A DNA stretch of 17,691 nucleotides from Candidatus Aenigmatarchaeota archaeon (GTDB lineage: Archaea > Aenigmatarchaeota > Aenigmatarchaeia > CG10238-14 > SCSR01), in contig JAWBTW010000015.1 of assembly GCA_039000165.1 (NCBI GenBank), positions 1-17,691 of the forward strand, written 5' to 3'. A program made the translations under genes and the position numbers. Every line of letters begins with the position of its first letter. The stretch's first letter is position 1. Positions 3-17,691 of this stretch are shown here, piece by piece. A model generated the notes under the pieces. That model made no database searches. It was given only the letters and a program-made list of their open reading frames with translations, and was not told the origin of the DNA.

Positions 3-3000
3 AAGGACAATTTAAACATAACAATAATTTTACCTTTACCTAACTCAATTTATCATGTTAGTGAAACAATTCTTTTGAACTCGACTATAAACGATTCTTG
101 TGGTCTAGCTACTTATAACTATAGCGTGATTTGGTTTGGGGATGGTAAAACAGATCCAGGTTTAAGCACTTGCAGTATGAGCGTTGAAGGAGAAAATTCA
201 TCCTATAACGTGGCAAGCAACTGCATGCCAGGCATATTTTTAATAAAAGCAAACGCCTCTGGTGAACTTTACAACTCAGACCAAAAAAACGTTAGCGTGT
301 GGATTTATGGTTGGAGTCAGGTTAACTTTACCTTTCCTTTAAATGAAACTAGGGTAAACAAGGCAGAAAGAGAAATGCTAGACTTAGTTTGTCAAGTAAA
401 AGACCCAAGCTCGCCTGTTCAAGAGCTTGAGAATTATCCTGTTTACTTCTGGGACTTAACATCAGGAGAAGAGTTTTTAGCTCAAGTTAAAACAAACCTC
501 ACAGGCTATGCAAAATATTCTTGGAACATAACTAACATAACCGATTTAGCTCAAGTTAAATGTAACATAAGTAATACAAACATAACCTTTTATAGGTATT
601 ATAATGCTTCTGTAAAAGAAAGTTACATAACTTTCAATATAATAGAAAACGATACAAAAGCTCCGACAATAGAAAATTTAAAAGCAGAACCTGCAATTCT
701 TGGTGAAAGCGTTAAAATAGAAGCTAATGTTTCAGATAAGTATGGGGTAGATAAGGTTTGGGTAAACGTTAGCTTTCCAAATTCTTCTTTTGTAGTTTAT
801 TACTTGCAAAACAAAACTTCTCAAATTACCAACACAACATGGGAAGTTGTAATTCCAGGATTAAACTTAGGAGATTACGATTTTGTACTTTTTGCTAACG
901 ATACTTCTAATAATATTGCTAACACAACAAGCTGGTTTGAAATTTATCAACCAATTCAAATGTATTTGAACGCAAGCTTTCCAATAGACTTTACTTTCTT
1001 CAGACCAGGAAAAGAAATAATAATCCATAGGTTTTCTTATCCTCCAGGAAATTACAATTTTACTCTGCATAAAAGAACTTATGATTGGTTGATAAAAATT
1101 GGTGAAAACTGGATAAAAATTTTCAATTTCAACACAACAAGAACTTCTGAGCTTCAGTTTAATAGTAGCGATGCAAACTTAACAAATCCGATAAACATTT
1201 CCTTGATTAGCGTAAGCCTAATCGACTTGCCAAAGCCTGAGAAGTATAAGATATCTGCTTTCGAAATAAAAACAAACGCTTCCTACTTAAACTTACTAAT
1301 AACTTTCAACTATTCAAAAGATTTGAACGAAGGAAGAATTTGGTTTGAGCCAGGGATTAAAATTTTCAAGTGTGCTAACTGGAGCTACCCAAATTGCTAT
1401 TCAGGTTGGGTTGAAGTAAGTAGTAATTTAGACCTAACAAATCATCTCATCTCTACACTTCAAACTTCACCCTCAGTTTATACTGCCGCAGAAATTGAGG
1501 TATGTGGAAACGGAAAATGTGGATACGGAGAATCTTGTGTTAATTGTCCAGAAGACTGTGGTTCTTGCGGCCCAACATATACTCCTCCTGCAGGAGGAGG
1601 GGGAGGAGCCGGTGCTCCTTCGTTACCACCTGAAACTATTCCAACAGAAGAAATTAAGTTTAGCATAAGAACAAACCTATCCGAAGCTCAAATAAACATA
1701 AACGAAACAAAGTATTTTGCTCTGTGGATTTTGAACGAGATGAGCTCAAGAATGAACTTTACAGTTTCGATTTCTGGTTCTATCACTGATTTGGTTAAAA
1801 TAGAAAGAGATTTCATCTCAGTTAATCCAAAAACTGAAGGTATGTTACTAATAGAAGCTTACGCTCCTCCAAGAACTGAGTTAGGAACTTATACAGGCAC
1901 AATATACGTTACAACAGCAAGAAAAACTCAAAACTTACCAGTAACTTTAACTGTTTCTCTTAAAGGTTTGGTTGAATTAGACATAATGGCAGAAGCTTTA
2001 ACAAAACAAGTCAATCCTGATAGGGTAGCAAGGTTCAGGATCGTTCTGTATAATTTAGGAGTAAAGAAAAACTTTGACGCAAACTTTACCTTTATAATTC
2101 AAGACCCAGAAACAAAAGAAATAATCTTTTCAACTAGCAAGATTAAATCTCTTCAATCATCTTACGAATCTTTTATTGAGGAATTTTATATTCCTCAAAA
2201 CATTTCCTTAGGCCAATACCTTTTTGTTGTAGAAGCTGAATACGATGGAAAAAAGAAAAGTTCTTCTGATTTGTTCGAAGTAGTTCAACCTTTCTGGACG
2301 CCTGCAAGAATTCAACTAGCAACGATTCTTTTAGTTGCTTTGTTCTCAGTTTTTTCATTCTTCTACGCAAGAAGCTACTATAAAAAATGGAAGCTAAAAA
2401 CAGCACGCTACATAGCTCCTGTTAAACCAGGAAAATTGCCAAAGGGCGAACTTTGGCTTGGAAAAGTTGCTGAAATCAGGGCAAAGGCAACTTTTGCTAT
2501 GGACGATTTAACAACTCACGTTTTAGTTGCAGGAGCTACAGGTTCTGGAAAATCTGTTACTGCAAGCCTGTTTGTTGAAGAATTGCTTGAGAAAAAGATT
2601 CCTGTAGTAGTTTTTGACCCCACAGCTCAGTGGACCGGATTTGTTAGGCCATGCAAAGACCCAAAAGTTCTTAAGTATTACAGAGCTTTTGGTCTTTCTC
2701 CTGAAGAGGCAAAACCTTACAAAGGTTTGATATTTGAAGTTACAAGCCCAAAAGTGGATATAGATTTCAAAAAGCTAATGAACCCAGGAGAAATTACAAT
2801 ATTCACTTTAGATAAACTTAAGCCTGGACAATATGATGAAGCAGTAACTCATATAATAGATACGATATTTGCTCAAGGATGGGAAGAGTCATCAAGCTTA
2901 AGGTTGGTAATAGTTTTCGACGAAGTTCACAGGTTGCTTGAAAAGTACGGGGGAAAAGGAGGTTACATAGCTTTGGAAAGAGCTTGCAGAGAGTTTAGAA

Positions 3001-3509
3001 AATGGGGAATAGGTTTAATAATGGTTTCCCAGGTTTTAAGCGATTTTAAGGAAGCTATAAAGGGTAATGTTTTGACAGAGATTCAAATGCACACTAAAAG
3101 TTTAGCAGATTTGGCAAGAATAGAAAAGAAGTATGGTTTAGAGTATGCTAAAAGGGTTGCAAGACTTGAGGTAGGAGTAGGCTTAATACAAAATCCAAAG
3201 TATAACGAGGGAATTCCTTGGTTCATTTCTTTTAGGCCGCCGTTACACATGCCTCACAAGATTCCAGAAAAAGAGCTTAAGATGTACAAAGACTTTAGCA
3301 AAGCGATAGAGGAAATAGAAAAAGAGCTTGAAATAATAGAAAAGGCAGGGATGGATATATTTGAATTCAAAACAGAATTAAAATTAGCTAAGGATAAGCT
3401 AAAGCAGGGCAGCTTTAGAATGGCTGAAATTTACATAACTTCCTTGAGAAAGAAGCTTGTTGACTTTTGGATAGGTAAGTATGGAGAGGGTAAGTATAGA
3501 AGAAAATGA
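3..3509 (+). CDS. Large cell-surface glycoprotein fused through one TM helix to a C-terminal HerA/VirB4-like (DUF87-type) P-loop ATPase; 5'-partial
   Basis: The frame is open from nt 3 (KDNLNITIILPLPNSIYHVSETIL...), so the TTG at 75 is probably internal and the gene starts upstream. About 35 N-x-S/T sequons (hand count) lie before the TM segment IQLATILLVALFSVFSFFYA (2310-2369) and none after it. A basic stretch RSYYKKWKLK follows the TM. Walker A GATGSGKS at 2532-2555 in the context THVLVAG...VVVFDP; Walker B VIVFDEVH at 2907-2930; REFRKWGIGLIMVSQ matches the arginine-finger/Gln-sensor region of the family. Confidence 0.88.
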   Translation, partial: KDNLNITIILPLPNSIYHVSETILLNSTINDSCGLATYNYSVIWFGDGKTDPGLSTCSMSVEGENSSYNVASNCMPGIFLIKANASGELYNSDQKNVSVWIYGWSQVNFTFPLNETRVNKAEREMLDLVCQVKDPSSPVQELENYPVYFWDLTSGEEFLAQVKTNLTGYAKYSWNITNITDLAQVKCNISNTNITFYRYYNASVKESYITFNIIENDTKAPTIENLKAEPAILGESVKIEANVSDKYGVDKVWVNVSFPNSSFVVYYLQNKTSQITNTTWEVVIPGLNLGDYDFVLFANDTSNNIANTTSWFEIYQPIQMYLNASFPIDFTFFRPGKEIIIHRFSYPPGNYNFTLHKRTYDWLIKIGENWIKIFNFNTTRTSELQFNSSDANLTNPINISLISVSLIDLPKPEKYKISAFEIKTNASYLNLLITFNYSKDLNEGRIWFEPGIKIFKCANWSYPNCYSGWVEVSSNLDLTNHLISTLQTSPSVYTAAEIEVCGNGKCGYGESCVNCPEDCGSCGPTYTPPAGGGGGAGAPSLPPETIPTEEIKFSIRTNLSEAQININETKYFALWILNEMSSRMNFTVSISGSITDLVKIERDFISVNPKTEGMLLIEAYAPPRTELGTYTGTIYVTTARKTQNLPVTLTVSLKGLVELDIMAEALTKQVNPDRVARFRIVLYNLGVKKNFDANFTFIIQDPETKEIIFSTSKIKSLQSSYESFIEEFYIPQNISLGQYLFVVEAEYDGKKKSSSDLFEVVQPFWTPARIQLATILLVALFSVFSFFYARSYYKKWKLKTARYIAPVKPGKLPKGELWLGKVAEIRAKATFAMDDLTTHVLVAGATGSGKSVTASLFVEELLEKKIPVVVFDPTAQWTGFVRPCKDPKVLKYYRAFGLSPEEAKPYKGLIFEVTSPKVDIDFKKLMNPGEITIFTLDKLKPGQYDEAVTHIIDTIFAQGWEESSSLRLVIVFDEVHRLLEKYGGKGGYIALERACREFRKWGIGLIMVSQVLSDFKEAIKGNVLTEIQMHTKSLADLARIEKKYGLEYAKRVARLEVGVGLIQNPKYNEGIPWFISFRPPLHMPHKIPEKELKMYKDFSKAIEEIEKELEIIEKAGMDIFEFKTELKLAKDKLKQGSFRMAEIYITSLRKKLVDFWIGKYGEGKYRRK

Positions 3510-4395
3510 AAAGCTGAAAGAACTGAAGGAAAAATATGGAGTAACAGAGGAAATTCCTGAAAGGAAGTTAGAGGAAGAAGTTAAGAAGAAAAAAGGTTCA
3601 AAAACAGAAATCGAAGAAATAACTTTACCAGAGCTTCTTTTAAGAGTTGAAAAGATTGAGGGTAAAATCGAAATTTTGACAGATTTTAAAAGAAGCATAG
3701 ACGAGAGAGTTGAGGCAATATCAGAAGGTCTTGGTGAACTTAGATCTACGCTTCTGGAAAAAGAAAAACTATTAACAAGAATGGAAAAAGATGTGCAAAC
3801 AGTTTTAGATTCTGTTTCTGAACTTGATTTGGAGAAGATAAAGAAAATGGTTTCAAAAAGAGATGTTGAAATAGAAGAAATAAAGGCTAATTTGGAAAAG
3901 CTTGATGCGATGATAAAGGATGTTCAAAAGCAACTGAAAGACTTCTTTGACGCTATGGAAAAGATAAAAAACATTGAAAGCTTGATTCTTGCGTCCGAAA
4001 AACTTGACAAGAAAATAGATAAGATAGAAGAAGCAAAAATCTACATAACAAAAACTGCTTCAAAGGTAGAATCTATATTTACTGAGCTAAGCGAAAAAGC
4101 GAGCTTGATAGAAAGACAGAAAAACGATATAGAAAAAATAAAAGATTTAAGTATGGAAATTGTCAGAACCTTAGATGAGCTAAGCCTAAAGCTTACTAAG
4201 TTTGTTAAAAAAGAAGAATTGGATGAGTTAAGAAAAGAAATAGAGAGAAGACTGGGAGGGAAGATTGAGATTAAGAAAGAAGCAAAACCAAAAGAAGAAG
4301 AAACTAAACTAAAAGAGGAGAAAAAACCGGAAGAAAGGGAAGAAGATGTCTGGGCTAGCTTAAGAGAAAAGTGGAAGAGGCTTGCCTCTTATTAG
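3481..4395 (+). CDS. Uncharacterised long coiled-coil protein (K/E-rich)
   Basis: 304 aa ORF with heptad-like L/I periodicity over most of its length. It overlaps the upstream gene by 29 nt and ends in DVWASLREKWKRLASY. The exact start is uncertain. Confidence 0.8.
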   Translation: MERVSIEENEKLKELKEKYGVTEEIPERKLEEEVKKKKGSKTEIEEITLPELLLRVEKIEGKIEILTDFKRSIDERVEAISEGLGELRSTLLEKEKLLTRMEKDVQTVLDSVSELDLEKIKKMVSKRDVEIEEIKANLEKLDAMIKDVQKQLKDFFDAMEKIKNIESLILASEKLDKKIDKIEEAKIYITKTASKVESIFTELSEKASLIERQKNDIEKIKDLSMEIVRTLDELSLKLTKFVKKEELDELRKEIERRLGGKIEIKKEAKPKEEETKLKEEKKPEEREEDVWASLREKWKRLASY

Positions 4396-4431: not shown

Positions 4432-5205
4432 ATGACAAGGATTATAGGTATAATTTCTGGTAAGGGTGGGGTTGGTAAAACAACACTAACTACAAACTTA
4501 TCCTATGCCATAGCTCAACTTGGCCAGGAAGTTATTGCCATAGATGCTAACATAACTACTCCTCACTTAGGCTTATCCTTAGGTTATCAGTTTGTCCCAA
4601 AAGGTTTACAAAATGTTTTGAGAGAAGGAATAAGTTTGGAGGATGTAATTTATTCTCATCCTTTTGGGTTTAAAGTTGTTCCATCAGTTTTAAACGTCCA
4701 TGAACTTAAAGATGTTGACATAGGGAAGCTACCAGAAATAACTTTAAACCTGATAGGAAAAGCTGACTTTGTTTTTCTTGATTGCGCTCCTGGCTTGGGA
4801 AGAGAAGCCACTTCAGCAATTCTCTCTGCTTCTGAGTTTTTACTCGTGGTGAACCCAGAAATGCCAAGCGTGATCGATGCTTTAAGAACTGCTTCCGTAG
4901 TAAAAAGTTCTAATAAGGAAATTTTAGGAGTTGTAGTCAACAGAGTAAGAAAAAAACCTTATGAGCTTAAGAAAGAGGAAATAGAAGAAATTCTTGGACT
5001 TCCTGTGTTGGTAGAGATTCCTGAGGATAAAAACGTGCAAAAAAGTCTTTCGCTCAAAGTTCCTGTTTTAAGCCTTTACCCGGATTCACCAGCAGCTATT
5101 GAAATAAAAAAACTTGCCTACTCGCTTTGCGGTTTTCCTTTCAAAGCTAAAAAACCAAGGCTTAACTTAATCCAAAGACTTGTTAATTGGATGATAAAAG
5201 AATAG
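4432..5205 (+). CDS. minD: Archaeal MinD/ParA-family ATPase
   Basis: Deviant Walker A SGKGGVGKTT, IAIDAN, VFLDCAPG, GVVVNRV, EIPED, and a C-terminal amphipathic segment LIQRLVNWMIKE resembling a membrane-targeting sequence. Confidence 0.9.
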   Translation: MTRIIGIISGKGGVGKTTLTTNLSYAIAQLGQEVIAIDANITTPHLGLSLGYQFVPKGLQNVLREGISLEDVIYSHPFGFKVVPSVLNVHELKDVDIGKLPEITLNLIGKADFVFLDCAPGLGREATSAILSASEFLLVVNPEMPSVIDALRTASVVKSSNKEILGVVVNRVRKKPYELKKEEIEEILGLPVLVEIPEDKNVQKSLSLKVPVLSLYPDSPAAIEIKKLAYSLCGFPFKAKKPRLNLIQRLVNWMIKE

Positions 5206-8140: not shown

Positions 8141-8851
8141 TTATCTTATTGGTTTGTACTTGCGAAAACCAAGAGCCTTACCCCTTAAGAAATAATTTAA
8201 ATAAGAGGAAATGTAAATCCTTGCCGCTTTAGTTCTTCCCCACTTTTCTAATCTTCTTGGCGAAGTTAAAACTAAAGCGTCATCAATAAAAACTATTTTA
8301 CCATGTTTTCCAATTCTTAAAGATAGGTCCAAATCTTCTTCAGGAATAATATCCTCTTTGAATCCACCAACTTTCTCAAAAACTTCTTTTCTATAGCCAA
8401 AAACTATACTGATTTGTGGTTTTCCTAGTTTAATCGATGACTTAGAAAATTGGTTAAAGAACCAGTAAATTAAAAAGTCCTTCATTTTAGCGTTTAGTGG
8501 CGCAACAGGACAAGTAGCACCTACAACTTTCTTACTTCTAAAAGCTTTTGCAAAAACCGTTAAGGTATTTGGTAAAAGAACACAATCTGCATCTACAAAA
8601 AAAAGTATTTCACCCCTAGCGTGTTTTGCACCTTCATTCAAACCTGCTGGTCTTCCTTTTCTGTTAACTATAATAACTTTATCTGTGTATTTCCTAGCTA
8701 TTTCTACAGTTTTGTCCTTACTTTTTCCGTCTGCTACTATTATTTCATACTTCCCTTTATAGTCCTGATTTTTTATCGACTTTAAACAATTTTCTATCAA
8801 TTTCTCTTCGTTTAAAGTAGGAACTATTACTGAAATGAAAGGTAGTTTCAT
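8141..8851 (-). CDS. Glycosyltransferase family 2 (GT-A fold)
   Basis: ISVIVPTLNEE, IIVADGKSKDKT, DxD motif FFVDAD, FEKVGGF, EDLDLSLR, TSPRR. Confidence 0.93.
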   Translation of the reverse strand: MKLPFISVIVPTLNEEKLIENCLKSIKNQDYKGKYEIIVADGKSKDKTVEIARKYTDKVIIVNRKGRPAGLNEGAKHARGEILFFVDADCVLLPNTLTVFAKAFRSKKVVGATCPVAPLNAKMKDFLIYWFFNQFSKSSIKLGKPQISIVFGYRKEVFEKVGGFKEDIIPEEDLDLSLRIGKHGKIVFIDDALVLTSPRRLEKWGRTKAARIYISSYLNYFLRGKALGFRKYKPIR

Positions 8852-10101: not shown

Positions 10102-10524
10102 ATGGCAACGTTTAAGTTTGTTGTTGCTGATCCGGAAACAAGAAAAACTTATCAAGTAGAAGTGGAAAAAAGCAAGGCCATAGGTTTAATAGGAAAGAAA
10201 ATTGGTGATGAATTTAACGGCGAAATTTTAGGTTTAATAGGTTACACTTTAAAAATCACAGGTGGAACAGATAAAGATGGTTTCCCCATGCATCCTAATG
10301 TTCAAGGTATGGGGAGAAAAAAGGTTTTACTCTCTTCACCACCTTGTTTTCATCCAAAGAAAAAAGGCGAAAGAAGGAGAAAAACTGTAAGAGGCAATAC
10401 TATAAGCGAAGATATAGTTCAAATAAATTGTAAGATAGTTAAGAAAGGGGAAAAGCCTTTAGAAGAGCTTATTCCTGTTAAACAAAAGGAAAAGAAGGAA
10501 GGGGGTGGAGAAAGTAAAGGATGA
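10102..10524 (+). CDS. rps6e: 30S ribosomal protein S6e
   Basis: FKFVVADP, LIGKKIGD, LKITGGTDKDGFPM, GERRRKTVRGNTISEDIVQIN. Confidence 0.97.
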   Translation: MATFKFVVADPETRKTYQVEVEKSKAIGLIGKKIGDEFNGEILGLIGYTLKITGGTDKDGFPMHPNVQGMGRKKVLLSSPPCFHPKKKGERRRKTVRGNTISEDIVQINCKIVKKGEKPLEELIPVKQKEKKEGGGESKG

Positions 10525-11728
10525 AAAGCTAATACCAGAGGTTAACATTGGTTTGGTTGGGCATGTAGCTCATGGCAAAACAACTTTAACAGAAGCTTTA
10601 ACTGGAAAGTTAACCTTAACTCATTCTGAAGAATTGAAAAGAGGAATAACAATTCGCTTAGGTTATGCTGATGCAACTTTTTATAGATGTACAAAATGCC
10701 TAAGGTATTGTACAAGCGAAAAATGTCCTTACTGCTTTTCTGATTGCGAGATTTTAAGAACTGTTAGTTTTATAGATGCTCCAGGTCATGAGACTTTAAT
10801 GGCTACAGTTTTAACTGCCACTTCTCTTATGGACGGAGCCTTACTTGTTATAGCAGCTAACGAGAAATGCCCCCAGCCGCAAACAAGAGAGCATTTGGCT
10901 GCTTTGGAAGTTGCAGGAATTAAGAATGTTGTGATAGTTCAGAATAAAATAGATTTAGTTTCAAAAGAAAGGGCCTTAGAAAGCTATCAAGAAATTAAAA
11001 ATTTTATTAGAGGTACAATTCTAGAAGATGCACCGATAATTCCTGCTTCTGCCCAGCAAAGAGCAAACATAGATTTGATAATTCAAGCTATAGAGGAAAG
11101 AATACCCACACCTAAGAGAGAAGAAGGGAAAAATTTAAAAATGCTCGTCGCAAGAAGTTTTGATGTCAATAAACCTGGAACCGAAGCAGAAAAATTGGTT
11201 GGAGGAGTTTTAGGTGGCTCGATAATTCAAGGCAAATTGAAGGTAGGAGAGGAAATAGAAATTAAACCAGGAATAAAAGTTGGAGGGAAATACAAGAGTT
11301 TAATTACAAAAGTTGAAGGTTTACAAAAAGCAAAAAGAAATCTTGAAGAGGCAGGACCAGGAGGTTTGGTAGGAGTATTAACGACTCTTGATCCTACCTT
11401 AACAAAATCCGATTCGCTTGTTGGGAATGTTGTTGGTTTGCCAGGAAAGCTTGAGGAATCAAGAGAAACTCTAGAAATTCAAGTAAAGCTTTTTGAAAGG
11501 TTAGTTGGGGCAAAAGAACTTAAAGAAATAGCTCCGATAAAACTTAAAGAAGACCTTTTGATTAACGTAGGAACTGCAAGAACCCTGGGAACAGTAACTC
11601 AAGTAAAAAAAGATACCATAGAACTTCAGCTTAAAATTCCTGTTTATGCAGAAAAAAATGAGAGAGTAGTAATTTCAAGGCAGTTTTCTGGAAGGTGGAG
11701 ATTGATAGGTTACGGAAATGTGATTTAA
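10505..11728 (+). CDS. eif2g: Translation initiation factor 2 subunit gamma (aIF2-gamma)
   Basis: PEVNIGLVGHVAHGKTT, HSEELKRGITIRLGYAD, Zn-knuckle CxxC...CPxC, DAPGHE, PQPQTREH, QNKID, RSFDVNKPG, RWRLIGYG. GTG start overlaps rps6e by 20 nt. Confidence 0.96.
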   Translation: MEKVKDEKLIPEVNIGLVGHVAHGKTTLTEALTGKLTLTHSEELKRGITIRLGYADATFYRCTKCLRYCTSEKCPYCFSDCEILRTVSFIDAPGHETLMATVLTATSLMDGALLVIAANEKCPQPQTREHLAALEVAGIKNVVIVQNKIDLVSKERALESYQEIKNFIRGTILEDAPIIPASAQQRANIDLIIQAIEERIPTPKREEGKNLKMLVARSFDVNKPGTEAEKLVGGVLGGSIIQGKLKVGEEIEIKPGIKVGGKYKSLITKVEGLQKAKRNLEEAGPGGLVGVLTTLDPTLTKSDSLVGNVVGLPGKLEESRETLEIQVKLFERLVGAKELKEIAPIKLKEDLLINVGTARTLGTVTQVKKDTIELQLKIPVYAEKNERVVISRQFSGRWRLIGYGNVI

Positions 11729-12162
11729 CCAACACAAGGAACTTGTATACCTGTTAAGGGATACCCTCCCATTTTTGGTAAAAAGTCATAAACACAATAC
11801 CTTGATCCTGTACCGCCACAATCATCTTCGAATGTGTAGATTTCAAGAGGTTTTATCCTTATAGTTAGCTTATCCACTTTTACTGGAGGATTTTGTGAAT
11901 AATCGGTAATTTTTTCGCCCGACGGAAGAGTTTGTTTAATTTCTACCTCTTGTTCTACACTACCAAAGTTTCTTATGTAAATTACTACTTTGTCTTCACC
12001 TCCTGTTCCTTGTCCATCCAAGCATTCGGGTTGTCCGATTATTTCTATTCCTTGACTTGCTCTTCCCCACCATCCAAATATAAAACCTGCCGCCATAGCT
12101 ACTAAGGCTAAAGTTATCATTAACAAAAGAATTGTTGCAAGTACGGTGGATATTCCTTTCAT
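11725..12162 (-). CDS. Archaeal type IV pilin-like protein (class III signal peptide)
   Basis: MKG|ISTVLATILLLMITLALVAMAAGFIFGWW is a PibD/FlaK-type cleavage site followed by a hydrophobic helix. The IYIRNFG strand and a 4-Cys small globular domain follow. Confidence 0.85.
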   Translation of the reverse strand: MKGISTVLATILLLMITLALVAMAAGFIFGWWGRASQGIEIIGQPECLDGQGTGGEDKVVIYIRNFGSVEQEVEIKQTLPSGEKITDYSQNPPVKVDKLTIRIKPLEIYTFEDDCGGTGSRYCVYDFLPKMGGYPLTGIQVPCVG

Positions 12163-12218
12163 ACTCTCTTAATCATTTTTTGGAAATCTTTATTTAAATG
12201 CTTTACTTTTAAAAAAAT
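12163..12218. promoter_or_regulatory. Divergent promoter region pilin / PIN gene with a central TATA-like element
   Basis: TTTATTTAAA at 12189-12198 (TTTAAATAAA on the - strand) is flanked by GGAAA on + and GTAAAG on -. It lies 20 nt from the PIN start and 26 nt from the pilin start. Confidence 0.5.
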
Positions 12219-12593
12219 GTGAAGAAAATAGTTTTTGATACGAATTTTTTGTTAGACTGCTTTAGGCTTAAAATAGATTTTTTAAGTGAAATAGAAGAGA
12301 AAATAGAGAAGCCCTACGAGCTCCTTATTCTTACTCCAAATTTGAAAGAAATTGAGAAGATTGCAAGAACAAGAAAAAAGGAAGCAAAATACGCAAAGGT
12401 TGCCCTAGAATTTATCAAAAATAATTGTAAGCTAATAACTACAGAAGAGAAAGATGCAGATAAAGCAATTTTAAAGTTTTCTGATGAAAATACTTTTGTT
12501 GCTACTAACGACAGAAAACTGAGAAAAAGTTTAAAAGCGTTAAAGGTAAAAAATATTTATTTGAAATCCATTAAAAAACTGGAGGTAAGCTAG
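12219..12593 (+). CDS. PIN-domain ribonuclease, Fcf1/Utp24-like (COG1412 type)
   Basis: IVFDTNFL, KEIEK, DADKAIL and VATNDRKLR supply the acidic PIN tetrad; typical position near aIF2-gamma; GTG start. Confidence 0.9.
   Translation: MKKIVFDTNFLLDCFRLKIDFLSEIEEKIEKPYELLILTPNLKEIEKIARTRKKEAKYAKVALEFIKNNCKLITTEEKDADKAILKFSDENTFVATNDRKLRKSLKALKVKNIYLKSIKKLEVS
12581..12586 (+). promoter_or_regulatory. Shine-Dalgarno sequence for hppA inside the 3' end of the PIN gene
   Basis: GGAGGT ends 10 nt before the ATG at 12597; the two genes are 3 nt apart. Confidence 0.6.
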
Positions 12594-12596
12594 AGA

Positions 12597-14633
12597 ATGG
12601 AGCTAATAATTTCAGGAATAGCAGGTTTGCTTTCAATTCTCTTAGCAATCTTCCTTTATTTCTACATTAAAAAGCAAGATGAGGGAAACCCAAGAATGAG
12701 AGAAATAGCTTCAGCTATAAGAGAAGGAGCTAACGCTTACTTGAAAAGGCAAAACATGACGCTTGCTGCTTTTGTAGTTGTAATGGCTTTTATCCTAGGG
12801 GTTCTTTTAGGCTTGCACGTAAGTTTAGCTTATCTTTTTGGTTCTTTTTGTACAACTTTAGCAAGCTACTTTGGAATGAGTGCAGCAGTTAAAACTAACG
12901 TGAGAGTTGCTAATGCCGCAAGAAAAGGTTTGAAAAAAGCTTTTCCCATTGCTTTCTATGGCGGAGCAATAATGGGTTTCTGTATAGTTGGTATGGCTTT
13001 GCTTGGCATAACAGCTGTCTACTATTCCTTTAACAAGTTTTATTCTCATGAAACTGCTTTAGAAGCGGTTCTTGGTTTCAGCTTTGGAGCAAGTGCTCTA
13101 GCACTTTTTGCAAAGGCAGGAGGAGGAATTTACACAAAAACTGCAGACATAAGCGCTGATTTAGTGGGAAAAGTTGAATTAGGAATTCCAGAAGATGACC
13201 CAAGAAATCCAGCAGTTATTGCTGATAATGTTGGTGATAATGTTGGAGATGTGGCAGGAATGGGGGCAGATTTAATAGACTCCTATATAGCAAGTATTGT
13301 TGCTGCTATGGTAATAGGTGCAACTATAAGCCTAAAATTTGCTCTTCTACCTTTGCTAATAGCTGCGGTAGGAATTTTTGCCTCTCTTATAGGAATTCTT
13401 TTTGTAAGAGTGGGAGAAAAAGAAAGTCCTGGAAAAGGTTTGAACAGAGGAACACTTTCAACTTGTATAATGTTTGCAATTTTAACTTTTGCTATTCTCT
13501 ACTTTCTTAACCTTGGAGAAAAAGCTTACGGAATTTTCTTTCCAACTTTAGCAGGCTTGCTAGCAGGAGCGATAATGGGAATAACAACTGACTATTACAC
13601 TTCAATAGACAGAAACCCTGTAAAGAAAACTGCAGAATCAGCAAAAACAGGAGCTGCTACCACAATCCTTTCAGGCTTTTCTTACGGGATAATAAGCATA
13701 GTTCCTTCCATAGTTGGAATTGCTGTAGCAACAATAGCAGCTTGGTACCTTTCCTCTTACTACGGAGTTAACAGCTTTTACGGAATTTCTGTTGCAGCAG
13801 TAGGAATGCTTTCCATAGTAGGAATGATAATTTCTGCAGACGCTTATGGCCCAATAGTTGACAATTCTCGCGGTATAGTTGAGCAATCAAAGCTTGGAGA
13901 AAAAGTTTTGAAAATTACTGATAAATTAGATGCTGCAGGTAACACAGCAAAAGCGATAACAAAAGGTTTTGCCATAGGAGCTGCAGCCTTAACAGTCTTA
14001 GCTTTATTTGGAACTTATGCTGAGGTTGTGGGAATAGAAAAAGATGCTAATGGCATGTATGTAATAAACATAGTTAACCCAAAAGTCATAGCAGGCTTAT
14101 TTATAGGAGCGATGATGCCTCCTTTGCTTTCTGCTCTTCTGATTCTTGCAGTAGGAAAAAATGCTTTTAGGATGATAGAGGAAGTGAGAAGACAGTTTAA
14201 AGAAATTCCTGGTTTAATTAAAGGAAAGGCTAAGCCAGATTATGCTAGATGCGTTGACATAGCAACAAAAGGCGCGCTAAAAGAGCTCATGTTTCCTTGC
14301 TCGCTAGCAATAATAGTTCCTTTAATAGTTGGTTTTGTTCTTGGAAAAGAAGCTTTAGCAGGCTTTTTAGCAGGAAGCATAGTTACAGGAATAATATTTG
14401 CTCTTTTCATGGCAAACTCAGGAGGGGCTTGGGATAATGCTAAGAAATTTATAGAAGAAGGAAACTTTGGAGGAAAAGGTTCAGAAGCTCATAAGGCTGC
14501 AGTTGTTGGTGATACCGTAGGAGATCCTTTCAAGGATACTGCTGGTCCTTCGCTAAACACTATGATAACTGTAATGTCACTAGTTTCTTCTGTCTTTGCT
14601 CCTCTTATAGTTTCTTATGCTTTGGTTTTCTGA
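12597..14633 (+). CDS. hppA: Membrane-integral cation-pumping pyrophosphatase with the K+-independent signature
   Basis: [60 protein letters not shown] (Lys determinant at 13950-13952), [20 protein letters not shown]; many TM helices; 678 aa. Confidence 0.96.
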
Positions 14634-15157
14634 AACTTTTTCTTGTAAAAGTTATTAGCGTAAATAACAATCTCTTTTGCTTCTTTTGAATTTTTCCATT
14701 CTTTAAACCTAGAGAATTTATGAGGCTCCAGCCTTTTATAAGTCTCAAAAAACTCCTGAATTTCCTTTAGCTTGTGAGGATGAACATCTTTTATATCTTT
14801 TATTCCATCAAACCTTGCATCGTTTAAAGGAACACAAAGAATTTTTGGGTCTTCACCTTTTTCATCTTCTATTATCAAAGCTCCTATAACTCTTGCTTTT
14901 ACTATGCAACCAACTTCTAAAGGCTCATAGCTTAAGACTAAAGCGTCTAAAGGATCTTCATCGTTAAACCAAGTTTGGGGAATAAAACCATACTCTACAG
15001 GAAAAACAACAGAAGAAGGAATTATTCTATCAAGAACAAGCTCATCCCACTCTATATTATATTCATACTTGTCTCTCGAACCGCTTATACACTCTATAAC
15101 GACATTAACTATTTCTGGCGGTTTTTCACCTAAGGGAATTTTATGTAAAATGCTCAT
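14615..15157 (-). CDS. ppa: Soluble family I inorganic pyrophosphatase
   Basis: VVIE, KYEY, LDR, YGFIPQT, DEDPLD, EDEKGEDPK, FFETYK: the catalytic residue set appears complete. Confidence 0.96.
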   Translation of the reverse strand: MSILHKIPLGEKPPEIVNVVIECISGSRDKYEYNIEWDELVLDRIIPSSVVFPVEYGFIPQTWFNDEDPLDALVLSYEPLEVGCIVKARVIGALIIEDEKGEDPKILCVPLNDARFDGIKDIKDVHPHKLKEIQEFFETYKRLEPHKFSRFKEWKNSKEAKEIVIYANNFYKKKFQKTKA

Positions 15158-15262
15158 AGCTAATTAATTTCTTCTGATACCTTTAAATTTTTTTTGTTTT
15201 TTTAAGTAAACATTAAATTTTTTATACTATTTGAGTAAGAATATAGTTTATTGAGTGGTTGA
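15158..15262. promoter_or_regulatory. Divergent promoter region ppa / P-type ATPase
   Basis: 105-bp AT-rich spacer. On the - strand an A-run plus TTTAAA (15182-15187) lies about 25-30 nt before the ppa ATG; on the + strand TTTATA is at 15221-15226. Confidence 0.5.
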
Positions 15263-17691
15263 ATGGAAGAAGAGAAGTGGCATGCTTTAGAGCCAAAAGA
15301 AGCGATGGAAAAATTGAAATCAAGTGAAAAAGGTTTAAGCGAGGAAGAAGCTAAAAAAAGGTTGCAAGAGTATGGCTATAATGAGTTAAAGGAAAGGAAA
15401 AAAGTTTCAGCTTTGGAAATTTTTCTCAATCAATTTAAAGATATATTTGTAATAATGCTTTTGGTTGCAATAGCTATTTCTGTTTTGATAGGATGGTACG
15501 AAATAAAAGAAAATCCAGAAAAAAGCTTTTTTGAAGCTTATGCTGATGCTGTAGCGATAGGGGCAATAGTTGTATTAAACGCAATTGTTGGCTTTACTCA
15601 AGAATACAGAGCTGAAAAAGCTTTGGAAGCTATGAAAAAGCTTACTGCTCCTAAGGCTAGGGTTATAAGGGAAGGAAAAGAGGTTTTGATAGATGCAAGG
15701 GAAGTTGTTCCTGGTGATATTCTTCTAATAGAAGCAGGGGATAGAATTGCTGCAGATGGTTTACTTTTGGAAAGCGTTGAGCTTGAGGTTAACGAGGCAG
15801 TTTTAACTGGAGAATCAGCTCCTGTGAGAAAAAAAGTTGGAAAGTTAAAGCCTGATATACCAATAGCTGAAAGAAAGAATTATGTTTTTATGGCAACTTA
15901 TGCTACTTACGGAAGAGGAAAAGTTTTAGTAACAGCTACAGGAATGAAAACAGAATTTGGAAAAATTGCAGAAAAAGTTCAGGAAATAGAGGAGGAAGAA
16001 ACTCCTTTGAAAAGAAAGCTAAACGATTTTGCAAAAAAGCTTGCGAAGTTTGTTGTTGTTATTTGCATAATAATTTTTGCTTTAGAACTTTACGAGATTT
16101 TAGGAATTTTTAAGATAAGAGAATTCGGAGAAATTATAAAAGAGTCTTTAGATGCTTTCATGACTTCTGTTGCCTTAGCAGTTAGTGCAGTTCCTGAAGG
16201 TTTACCTGCAGTTGTTACAATAACTTTAGCCTTAGGTGCAAGAGAACTAGCAAGGAGGAATGCTATAATAAGAAAACTTTCCTCTGCTGAAACTTTGGGA
16301 GCAGTTACTGTTATTTGTTCCGATAAAACTGGAACCTTAACAAAAGGAGAAATGACTGTTAAGAAAGTTTATGCTAACGATAAGATTATAGAAGTTACAG
16401 GCGTTGGTTATGAAGCAAAAGGAGAATTTTTGCTCGAGGGAAAAAGTTTTAACCCTAAGGAAATAGAGCTTTTGCTTAGAATTGCTTGCTTATGCAACAA
16501 TGCAAGTTATGATGGACAAACAATAAAAGGAGACCCAACAGAAGGAGCTTTGATAGTTGCAGCAGCAAAGGCAGGAATGAAAAAAGAAGATTTGGAAAAT
16601 GAGTATCAAAGAATTCATGAAATTCCTTTCAGCTCTGAAAGAAAGAGAATGACTACAATTCACTCATTTGAAAACAAAAAGTTTGCTTATATGAAAGGTG
16701 CTCCTGAAGTTGTTCTTGAGAGATGCGATTTTATTTTAAAAGATGGAAAAATAGAAAAGTTGGATGAAAAAGAAAAGAAGAAGATTCTAAAGGTTAACGA
16801 AGATTTTGCTTCTCAAGCCTTAAGAGTTTTGGGTTTTGCTTTTAAAGAGCTGAAAGAAAAGTTTGACGATGAAAGCGCTGAAAAAGGTTTGGTTTTTGTT
16901 GGCCTAATGGGAATGATAGACCCAGCAAGAGAAGAAGCAAAAGAAGCTAATAAAAAATGTCAGGAAGCAGGAATAAAAACTGTGATGATTACTGGCGACC
17001 ATAAGCTTACCGCAATAGCAATAGCAAAAGAGATTGGTATGCTTGAGAATAATGAAGAAGCTAAAGTTTTAACTGGCGAGGAGCTTGACAAGCTTAGCGA
17101 CGAAGAATTTGAAAAGATTGTTGAAGAAGTTAGAATTTATGCAAGAGTTTCTCCTGAACATAAGTTAAGAATTGTTAAAGCGTTAAAGAAAAAGGGTCAT
17201 ATAGTTGCCATGACAGGCGATGGAGTAAACGATGCTCCAGCTTTAAAGCAAGCAGATATTGGAATAGCAATGGGTATCACTGGTACAGAAGTAACAAAAG
17301 AAGCTTCCGACATGATCTTAGCTGATGATAACTTTGCAACGATAGTTAAAGCAGTTGAAGGGGGAAGAGGAATTTATGAAAACATAAGAAAGTTTGTTTT
17401 CTTTTTATTAAGATGCAATTTTGATGAGTTGGGAATAATAGGTATTTTTGCCTTATTAGGTTTGCCTTTGCCTTTAAATGCTGCCATGATTTTATGGATT
17501 AATTTAGTTACTGATGGTGGACCAGCAATAGCTTTGAGCATGGACCCACCAGAAGAAGATTTGATGAAAAGAAAGCCTCGAGACCCAAAACAAGGAATTT
17601 TGCACGGAAGGTTTGCTCAAATTTTAGCATCTTTCATAACTCAGTTTTTTGGTACTGCTTTTGTTTTCTGTATAGTTTATTATACAAAGTT
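15263..17691 (+). CDS. P2A-type (SERCA/PMR1-like) cation-transporting P-type ATPase; 3'-partial, absent from the ORF track
   Basis: Manual translation from ATG 15263 gives MEEEKWHALEPKEAMEKLKSSEKGLSEEEAKKRLQEYGYNEL. In the same frame: TGES (15806), PEGL (16193), DKTGTLT (16322), KGAPE, MITGDH, GDGVNDAPAL (17216), WINLVTDG. The frame runs off the window end. Confidence 0.95.
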   Translation, partial: MEEEKWHALEPKEAMEKLKSSEKGLSEEEAKKRLQEYGYNELKERKKVSALEIFLNQFKDIFVIMLLVAIAISVLIGWYEIKENPEKSFFEAYADAVAIGAIVVLNAIVGFTQEYRAEKALEAMKKLTAPKARVIREGKEVLIDAREVVPGDILLIEAGDRIAADGLLLESVELEVNEAVLTGESAPVRKKVGKLKPDIPIAERKNYVFMATYATYGRGKVLVTATGMKTEFGKIAEKVQEIEEEETPLKRKLNDFAKKLAKFVVVICIIIFALELYEILGIFKIREFGEIIKESLDAFMTSVALAVSAVPEGLPAVVTITLALGARELARRNAIIRKLSSAETLGAVTVICSDKTGTLTKGEMTVKKVYANDKIIEVTGVGYEAKGEFLLEGKSFNPKEIELLLRIACLCNNASYDGQTIKGDPTEGALIVAAAKAGMKKEDLENEYQRIHEIPFSSERKRMTTIHSFENKKFAYMKGAPEVVLERCDFILKDGKIEKLDEKEKKKILKVNEDFASQALRVLGFAFKELKEKFDDESAEKGLVFVGLMGMIDPAREEAKEANKKCQEAGIKTVMITGDHKLTAIAIAKEIGMLENNEEAKVLTGEELDKLSDEEFEKIVEEVRIYARVSPEHKLRIVKALKKKGHIVAMTGDGVNDAPALKQADIGIAMGITGTEVTKEASDMILADDNFATIVKAVEGGRGIYENIRKFVFFLLRCNFDELGIIGIFALLGLPLPLNAAMILWINLVTDGGPAIALSMDPPEEDLMKRKPRDPKQGILHGRFAQILASFITQFFGTAFVFCIVYYTK

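Follow-up and report, generated by a model that had tools for sequence, protein, structure and literature searches.

The window analysed here is a 17,691-nucleotide (nt) stretch of DNA, contig JAWBTW010000015.1 of the Candidatus Aenigmatarchaeota archaeon assembly GCA_039000165.1. Its first gene, open reading frame (ORF) 3..3509 on the forward strand, has an open 5' end and encodes 1168 amino acids (aa). Its sequence identifies it as the C-terminal 1168 aa of a ∼2184-aa protein of the SPEARE family, with the architecture published for that family. On balance we favour an account in which this protein drives ATP-dependent transfer of macromolecules at sites of cell contact, assisted by a coiled-coil partner. 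An earlier note on this DNA knew of no characterised protein with such an architecture. SPEARE proteins (PMC6642349, PMC10266531) already have it as far as these sources describe them, and because the architecture matches an already described family the claim of novelty falls.

In some of the smallest archaeal genomes several percent is given over to SPEARE-type proteins, which are the leading candidates for the means by which DPANN archaea attach to other cells and trade material with them. The window member itself brings nothing new architecturally. The additions made here are modest: the nearest relatives of the motor (HerA, DndH and VirB4), a minimal conserved module, a near-universal coiled-coil partner, and occurrence outside DPANN.

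Membership of the SPEARE family and the full-length protein

SPEARE proteins of up to 8553 aa, together with versions of 655 and 717 aa, were described in PMC6642349 (Hamm et al. 2019) as mostly extracytoplasmic; a transmembrane (TM) segment lies on their C-terminal side, and a conserved portion inside the cell was interpreted as a type III restriction enzyme. Relatives were reported there in Woesearchaeota, Aenigmarchaeota, Micrarchaeota and Altiarchaeales. The criterion given was at least one laminin-G domain, and the name-giving member carries a serine protease; the 655- and 717-aa versions are too short to hold a laminin-G domain, a protease and all the other domains. PMC10266531 (2023) re-analysed the SPEARE proteins with two giants of 9409 and 8880 aa. 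The order described was a Sec signal peptide, an Ig-like domain, two PQQ/WD40-like propellers, ∼75 Ig-like domains and a TM segment, followed by a cytosolic VirB4/TraG-like ATPase and a terminal coiled coil. That paper rejected the assignment of protease and endonuclease domains, proposed a secretion ‘straw’ that injects effectors, and mentions a second ATPase downstream. PMC8470020 named as SPEARE proteins of 12,127, 8146 and 3105 aa in the metagenome-assembled genomes (MAGs) KA27 and KA24.

The window protein belongs to this published family because it has the same order of domains and matches, at 57% identity, a protein that corresponds in size to a named SPEARE. The match, P0338 (3105 aa, on a 63,862-bp contig; E 5.1e-142, 57% identical over 96% of the query), agrees with the KA24 SPEARE of PMC8470020 in its 3105 aa and with the KA24 contig of locus L083 in its 63,862 bp, so that the correspondence is one of size, with no accession match. 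The nanohaloarchaeal proteins P0043, P0058 and P0070 are 51–58% identical. An extracytoplasmic bulk, one TM segment and a cytoplasmic C terminus are found both in the window ORF and in its complete orthologue P0122. The intracellular part is of the ResIII/DUF87/VirB4-like kind (Pfam DUF87, HerA_C and ResIII), and the ResIII match that misled the first SPEARE description is thus also present in the window protein. Of the features of an adhesion-type ectodomain, a beta-propeller and Ig-like domains were found. The N-terminal signal peptide is indicated by hydropathy in P0122, the window gene being truncated. By Pfam at E ≤ 0.001, no Laminin_G, serine-protease or toxin-like region was found in P0122, a comparison in which the HHpred and I-TASSER analyses of Hamm et al. 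reach further.

The window begins at base 1 of contig C15 of its genome (783 kb, 25 contigs, estimated 91.6% complete), and ORF 3..3509 is therefore truncated by the contig end. Judged from the orthologue, ∼1016 N-terminal aa of the gene, comprising the signal/anchor and the beta-propeller, fall off the contig. A tblastn search of the window's own genome with the first 600 aa of P0002 gave no match. Because the upstream part is unassembled there, we used the orthologue from G001, a genome of the same genus. This protein, P0122, has its full length of 2184 aa, shows 98% identity in the ATPase part and is followed by the same downstream genes; in another assembly the same protein as that of the window reaches 1760 aa with the N terminus still open. 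The gene does continue upstream, as the earlier note had supposed, and the signal peptide for which it proposed a search has a counterpart in P0122, which begins MQEKVKIFLLFFFSSIFLLIFLKL and has a hydrophobic segment at aa 2–31, with a hydropathy of up to 2.46. Such a segment is present in 48 of the 82 homologues that start with M (an estimate from hydropathy, not from a signal-peptide predictor). Beta-propeller matches lie within aa 132–355 of P0122 (PF25292, 1.5e-14; PF13570, 6.3e-13), and all of its 93 N-X-S/T sequons precede the TM helix. The named members of the 90% cluster are all Candidatus Aenigmatarchaeota/Aenigmarchaeota MAGs, and one form of 2270 aa lies on a 938-kb contig.

The fusion of ectodomain and ATPase recurs widely. 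A hydrophobic helix lies 55–110 aa ahead of Walker A in 114 of 120 homologues among the matches listed, and in the remaining six the hydropathy peak is 1.29–1.58, slightly below the threshold. A misassembly, missed stop or frameshift joining an adhesin gene to an ATPase gene might be suspected from the truncation of both the window gene and its paralogue on contig C16 at contig ends, which marks them as hard to assemble, but the chance of this is negligible: the junction recurs across many independent assemblies, is present in 18 members of the window's 90% cluster, lies in uninterrupted frames of 2184 aa in G001 and ∼2200 aa in G012, G021, G026 and G029, and is described in the SPEARE accounts of three papers (PMC10266531, PMC6642349, PMC8470020). 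The survey for the same fusion that the earlier note had advised thus speaks against misassembly.

Topology, conserved module and motor domain

Hydropathy in the window protein (Kyte-Doolittle, 19-residue window, threshold 1.6) reaches at least 1.6 in only one segment, aa 766–791, with a peak of 2.12 at aa 770–788 (nt ∼2310–2372). The TM helix is placed at aa 770–790, leaving 378 aa behind it, and is directly followed by the basic stretch SYYKKWKLKTARY; helix and juxtamembrane stretch, the latter with a conserved R-Y-I-x-P (aa 791–813; hydropathy and alignment), occupy 2310..2441 (+). N-X-S/T sequons number 37 ahead of the helix and 0 behind it, close to the ∼35 and 0 of the earlier note. When each part was shuffled 1000 times, 10.9 ± 2.9 sequons were expected in the ectodomain (772 aa) and 0.32 ± 0.54 in the tail (375 aa). 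The ∼3.4-fold enrichment of the ectodomain is real, while the lack of sequons in the tail is mostly due to an Asn content of only 1.1%. The 120 homologues taken together have 3.90 sequons per 100 aa on the N-terminal side of the helix and 0.21 on its C-terminal side. The single hydrophobic segment, the basic residues after it and the sequon asymmetry indicate a type I membrane protein with a single pass, N-out/C-in, in agreement with the earlier reading. An STT3/AglB oligosaccharyltransferase (74.8 bits) is encoded in the window's own genome, which makes N-glycosylation of the sequons plausible, and the ectodomain is probably adhesin-like and N-glycosylated.

Alignment A1 joins the C-terminal 409 aa of the window protein with 70 homologues of 583–788 aa (71 sequences). 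Short forms consist of a leader, the motif CGxxxCxxGENxxNCPxDC, ∼220 aa, a P-F-W motif, the TM helix, R-Y-I-x-P, the ATPase and a helical tail. The module they have in common corresponds to aa 501–1168 of the window protein, and the core common to all forms is the Cys motif, two Ig-like domains, the TM helix and the ATPase. The module opens with the Cys motif, which is present in all family members, including the short forms of 650–730 aa. In giant members extra domains are inserted between leader and Cys motif. R43, Y44 and P47 of R-Y-I-x-P are almost invariant in A1.

In the window, the distal part of the ectodomain (fragment aa 1–500; 3..1502, +) is sequon-dense and beta-rich, and no Pfam family was found on it. 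The Cys-rich motif CGNGxCxxGExxxNCPxDC (aa 501–522) and a Pro/Gly-rich linker (aa 523–544) follow at 1503..1634 (+; alignments A1 and A3). The ∼220-aa region, at 1659..2282 (+), was modelled as two membrane-proximal Ig-like/FnIII-like beta-sandwich domains, aa 553–652 and 659–760 (AlphaFold2 model m93d81c1782c2, mean predicted local distance difference test (pLDDT) 91.4); model confidence is lower in the linker (block pLDDT 56–76). Foldseek matched the Ig-like domains in the PDB to RbmA (2.3e-10), the WxL-interacting protein 9i1y (1.3e-09) and macroglobulin-type domains. The A1 profile matches EfmWxLIP1 at 0.0015, and there is a weak DUF4625 match on the membrane-proximal Ig-like region.

The cytoplasmic RecA-like ATPase core lies at 2442..3266 (+), as placed by Pfam, model and fold comparison, and a C-terminal three-helix/coiled-coil tail (aa 1089–1167; model helices 330–355, 361–375 and 379–408) runs with the stop codon to the end of the gene (3267..3509, +). 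Walker A is GATGSGKS (aa 844–851; nt 2532–2555) and Walker B is VIVFDE (aa 969–974; nt 2907–2924). Pfam places the DUF87/HerA central domain here at 6.2e-12 (46.5 bits, cut-off 23.2), and the intact Walker A/B ATPase reported from the letters alone is thereby borne out. HerA_C follows at 4.4e-07 and ResIII, on aa 826–981, at 4.4e-05 (23.9 bits, cut-off 22.5); FtsK_SpoIIIE PF01580 (21.9 bits, cut-off 24), T4SS-DNA_transf and TrwB_AAD_bind stay below cut-off. The ATPase part is the most conserved region, with 44–74% identity to the window protein across the 70 homologues, and it retains a REFRKWG arginine motif and an SQ motif. Columns invariant in the 71 sequences include K91, E215, H217, R218, R237, E238, R240, S250 and Q251, that is, the Walker A lysine, the Walker B glutamate with the next H-R, the R-E-x-R and the S-Q, and the Walker B aspartate is present in at least 90%. 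This invariance of catalytic columns fits an active enzyme.

A model of TM helix and ATPase (window:2280-3506; pLDDT 94.4, predicted template modelling score 0.91) consists of a long helix (residues 8–41), a short hairpin, the RecA-like core and three C-terminal helices. The best Foldseek match is Sulfolobus HerA (4d2i, 3.8e-14), followed by other HerA complexes, the STIV B204 packaging ATPase, TcpA and FtsK. Fold comparison with VIA-align against 48,161 chains also placed HerA 4d2i first (Z 26.3, root-mean-square deviation (rmsd) 2.8, 250 residues aligned), ahead of the DndH C-domain (Z 24.2, rmsd 2.4, 232 aligned), VirB4 4ag5 (Z 23.1, rmsd 2.8, 236 aligned) and further HerAs (Z 19–22). TrwB (Z 17.7), TcpA (Z 17.6), the FtsK motor 2ius (Z 17.0) and EccC (Z 16.9; EccC and EssC together 16–17) came behind. 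The earlier proposal of a HerA/VirB4/FtsK-like motor was therefore sound, with HerA nearest and VirB4 and FtsK behind it; the archaeon that encodes it has a small genome. The A1 profile matched HerA chains in the PDB at 2e-11 and 2.9e-11, and IcmO at only 0.007.

Curated family scores are of another order. The best NCBIfam match was CedD at 6.8e-15 (54.7 bits, cut-off 600), followed by HerA at 1.8e-11; HerA_Thermprot scored 43.1 bits against a cut-off of 800, helicase_HerA 25 against 970, CedB 18.2 against 700, TraC-F-type 29.7 against 567 and VirB4_plasma 16.5 against 590. Neither the HAS-barrel of HerA nor the N-terminal domain of VirB4 is present in the model, and Pfam did not list PF03135 at E ≤ 0.01. 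The window protein thus lacks the curated score, the HAS-barrel and the NurA partner of HerA; the curated score, N-terminal domain and type IV secretion system (T4SS) neighbours of VirB4/TraC; the equivalog score of CedB/CedD; and the Pfam gathering score of FtsK/SpoIIIE. The ATPase belongs to the HerA/VirB4 clade of the FtsK-HerA superfamily, is nearest to HerA, and stands outside every curated family. The high likeness of the modelled fold to VirB4 suggests that it works like this clade without being a member. An ordinary 501-aa HerA is separately encoded on contig C3 of the window's genome, which also encodes three further DUF87-type ATPases.

Partner gene, distribution and other genes of the window

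The gene downstream, at 3481..4395 (+), shares 29 nt with the 3' end of the ATPase gene, and the two are apparently translationally coupled. Its product, P0245 (304 aa), is a charged coiled-coil protein in which no membrane segment was reported. We compared neighbourhoods in the 78 best loci, those most similar to the Aenigmatarchaeota query. A homologue of the partner adjoins the ATPase gene in 67 of them (BLASTP; one ORF in each), and clustering of all 1544 ORFs of these loci returned the same 67-member cluster. The idea of a possible one-gene machine, put forward in the earlier note, finds no support in view of this neighbour. In 66 of the 67 loci the partner gene follows the ATPase gene in the same orientation, at a distance of -29 to +989 nt, and in one it is convergent; among the 11 loci with no partner match, several have a contig that ends shortly past the ATPase gene. 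A match was found at all 12 related-genome loci, the window's own L002 included, and at the giant paralogue locus L016. With the partner profile (A2), exactly two ORFs were found in the window's genome, each directly downstream of a SPEARE-like gene.

The conserved core of the partner (EKxEGK...IGELRS...KVExIFSE) spans ∼200 aa with two invariant and eight nearly invariant columns, a similarity that exceeds coiled-coil composition. P0245 falls in no curated family of Pfam or NCBIfam, where the matches, all sub-threshold, were HBM, NPV_P10, DUF1664, Rad50 and SMC. In a protein atlas its neighbours are unnamed DPANN clusters (0.93–0.94) and generic coiled coils. The SPEARE accounts of PMC6642349, PMC10266531 and PMC8470020 make no mention of the partner gene, the supplements of PMC6642349 being outside this scope. 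Complex prediction for the cytoplasmic domain (A1 residues 36–409) with the partner gave 0.00 in both runs, with the controls unfolded, and is neutral on binding.

Across the 78 loci no other real gene is conserved, the next clusters being antisense ORFs that overlap these genes. A ParA/MinD-type ATPase gene at 4432..5205 (+; Pfam CbiA 2.1e-20, ParA 3e-19) was considered as part of the module and rejected, because its cluster occurs in 7 of the 78 loci and it accompanies the ATPase gene in close relatives only. In G001 a ParA-like gene with 45% identity is found immediately ahead of the giant paralogue, on the opposite strand (L015:1-384).

The family is large. Word-indexed searches returned 670 relatives of 642–2044 aa and 271 of 2045–5000 aa, and an exhaustive search of 50% representatives returned 1420 at E ≤ 0.001 and 357 at E ≤ 1e-30, with lengths to 7878 aa. 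Most of the 150 matches listed end with the ATPase or soon after it, and a minority carry 100–700 aa beyond it. A more distant subset at ∼43–48% identity (among others P0182, P0190, P0207 and P0215) has the ATPase mid-protein, with 100–700 aa after it, unlike the C-terminal placement seen in the window's group. Of 31 related genomes, G000 being one of them, 24 gave a match at E ≤ 0.001 and 19 gave one at E ≤ 1e-100, and in species-representative genomes at least 562 of 612 candidate stretches were confirmed.

By their titles, the 78 best loci comprise 35 Aenigmatarchaeota, 22 of an unspecified archaeon, six nanohaloarchaeal, two Woesearchaeota, two ‘Nanobdellati’ (KA24, KA27), three of Hydrothermarchaeales type, three Methanosarcinales (L041, L075, L088), and one each of Pacearchaeota, Parvarchaeota, Methanobacteriota, Heimdallarchaeota and Halobacteria, a mix that is biased toward the Aenigmatarchaeota query and in which some MAG labels may be binning errors. 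One locus (L042) lies on a 1,917,514-bp contig of Candidatus Hydrothermarchaeum profundi; at 1.9 Mb this is unlikely to be contamination, and the family is therefore not restricted to small-genome symbionts.

Paralogues reach extreme lengths. A second SPEARE-like gene of the window's genome (contig C16, ∼10353-17350, -) encodes more than 2332 aa before it is truncated by the contig end, with an ATPase 51% identical to that of the window. Its orthologue in G001 (contig C1, L015:2239 to L016:16468) runs without interruption over 11,409 aa, taking up ∼34 kb of a ∼1-Mb genome, and is followed by its own 566-aa coiled-coil partner; other relatives have open frames of 9015 and 11,262 aa. Two ATPase-bearing genes stand in tandem in nine of the 78 loci (L045, L046, L052, L062, L068, L075, L085, L088, L089). 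The first gene of each pair is long and the second encodes 551–1500 aa, with a short form of 551–726 aa in seven of the nine. A partner match lies beside the second gene in eight (convergent in L062; none in L045). One possibility is that such pairs form mixed rings of long and short subunits.

The remainder of the window holds genes of other kinds. A membrane H+-pyrophosphatase gene (PF03030, 3.9e-251; 12597-14633, +) is convergent with a soluble inorganic pyrophosphatase gene (PF00719, 8.4e-50; 14615-15157, -), and their 3' ends overlap by 19 nt. A 145-aa ORF at 11725-12162 (-) has a sub-threshold match to the archaeal type IV pilin N-domain PF07790 (E 0.0055, 18 bits, cut-off 25.2). A family 2 glycosyltransferase gene (PF00535, 4.8e-30; 8141-8851, -) lies between the genes for PheRS alpha and a class I Trp/Tyr-type tRNA synthetase, and could bear on the glycosylation of the surface protein. 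A tRNA scan found no tRNA gene within the window.

Proposed function and comparison with known systems

The signal/anchor is followed by the beta-propeller, sequon-rich ectodomain, Cys motif and two Ig-like domains outside the cell, and the ATPase and helical tail lie inside. In the account we favour, the ectodomain would bind the surface of another cell, and the ATPase domains would form a ring beneath the membrane, like those of their closest structural relatives. ATP hydrolysis could then move DNA or protein, in either direction, across the archaeon's membrane at the contact site, with the coiled-coil partner acting on the cytoplasmic face of the ring. A contact-coupled translocase appears to be the most likely function because HerA, DndH, VirB4, CedB/CedD, TrwB, FtsK and EccC are all ring motors on DNA or protein and because several of these relatives work at membranes. 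In fold and family comparisons the DNA-handling relatives score slightly above the secretion ATPases.

Several points weigh against this account. The ATPase has neither HAS-barrel nor VirB4 N-terminal domain, and with all curated scores far below their cut-offs its function is not transferable by family membership. HerA-type rings of anti-phage systems serve as platforms for effector proteins and are not known as membrane translocases. With a single TM helix in each subunit, a ring could offer no more than a six-helix bundle, which double-stranded DNA would be too wide to pass, and no polytopic membrane protein is conserved in the neighbourhood across the 78 loci, where only the coiled-coil gene recurs. 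Together these two facts, the main weakness of the account, make a self-sufficient channel doubtful, and they keep alive a reading in which the ring acts on the coiled-coil protein. Occurrence in Hydrothermarchaeum and Methanosarcinales makes a role in host attachment confined to DPANN too narrow. The evidence given in the published SPEARE accounts consists of proteomics, which showed that the protein is made, and of hypotheses.

A more specific version, which we hold tentatively and would not expect to be borne out in full, is that a SPEARE-type protein and its cognate partner are a self-contained contact-dependent translocon, built unlike both the T4SS and the Ced system. Single-pass subunits, perhaps of both long and short paralogues where these are encoded in tandem, would make up its ring; their ectodomains would grip a neighbouring cell while motor and partner would import host DNA or deliver proteins.

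The ‘straw’ of PMC10266531, resembling type IV secretion, has Ig-like domains that bind the host and a VirB4/TraG-like ATPase that exports effectors. This reading is in print for nanohaloarchaeal members, VirB4 is close in structure (4ag5, Z 23.1) with EccC and EssC at Z 16–17, and the tandem of long and short ATPase genes found at nine of the 78 loci is as that paper describes. We nevertheless consider it unlikely for the window protein. No other T4SS component is conserved beside the gene in the 78 loci, PF03135 was not reported at E ≤ 0.01, TraC reaches 29.7 bits against 567, the DNA-handling HerA, DndH and CedD score as high as VirB4 or higher, and the reading comes with no known effector candidate.

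We judge it distinctly unlikely that the protein moves no substrate across the membrane and that the ATPase ring is a cytoplasmic platform for assembly or remodelling, acting on the coiled-coil partner and coupling adhesion to an inner scaffold. Examples would be the clustering or anchoring of adhesins at the contact site, or control of their turnover or shedding. Several observations would suit such a platform: the one gene conserved beside the ATPase gene encodes a long coiled-coil protein for which no membrane segment was reported, the partner exists as a separate cognate copy for each paralogue, every subunit has a single TM helix, and effector-scaffolding HerA relatives are among the structural matches. 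In the proteomics of PMC6642349, moreover, the protein was made and its extracytoplasmic part appeared in another size fraction than its TM/cytoplasmic part, suggestive of processing. The catalytic and arginine-finger columns, however, are invariant, as in processive ring motors, and the nearest characterised relatives are all translocases or helicases. No archaeal precedent for such coupling turned up, though none was searched for.

Compared with known systems, the window protein is most like HerA in its motor. HerA, which in archaea is a translocase of DNA end resection that works with NurA, is the best structural and profile match, and both have the Walker A, a DE-x-H Walker B and an arginine motif of REGRK type. 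The window protein differs in that a TM helix and a short hairpin, with no barrel domain, precede the SPEARE-type core, and in that no NurA or effector gene is conserved nearby in the 78 loci. VirB4, of type IV secretion, and CedB and CedD, of crenarchaeal DNA import, belong to the same clade of the FtsK-HerA superfamily as the window ATPase, and ATPases of these types are described as acting at the membrane in cell-to-cell transfer of DNA. They carry no giant ectodomain, however, and no CedA-like or other polytopic channel partner lies near the SPEARE-type genes in the 78 loci. TrwB/VirD4/TcpA, FtsK and EccC/EssC share an N-terminal membrane anchor followed by a ring-forming, cytoplasm-facing ATPase of FtsK-HerA type (Z 16–18), but are farther from the window ATPase than HerA and VirB4 are. 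To our knowledge, the anchors of these proteins are short, with no large extracellular domain.

The closest counterparts are the SPEARE proteins themselves. The accounts of them share with the window protein and its orthologue the signal peptide, a propeller, many beta-sandwich domains, a TM segment on the C-terminal side, a P-loop ATPase of ResIII/DUF87 kind and a coiled coil. The ATPase part is 51–58% identical to those of the nanohaloarchaeal and KA24 members, and short, giant and tandem versions occur in both, the second ATPase mentioned in PMC10266531 having its match in the tandem pairs at nine of the 78 loci. The window member differs in coming from Aenigmatarchaeota and in being mid-sized (∼2184 aa), whereas the members described in the published accounts are from Nanohaloarchaeota and the EX4484-52 lineage.

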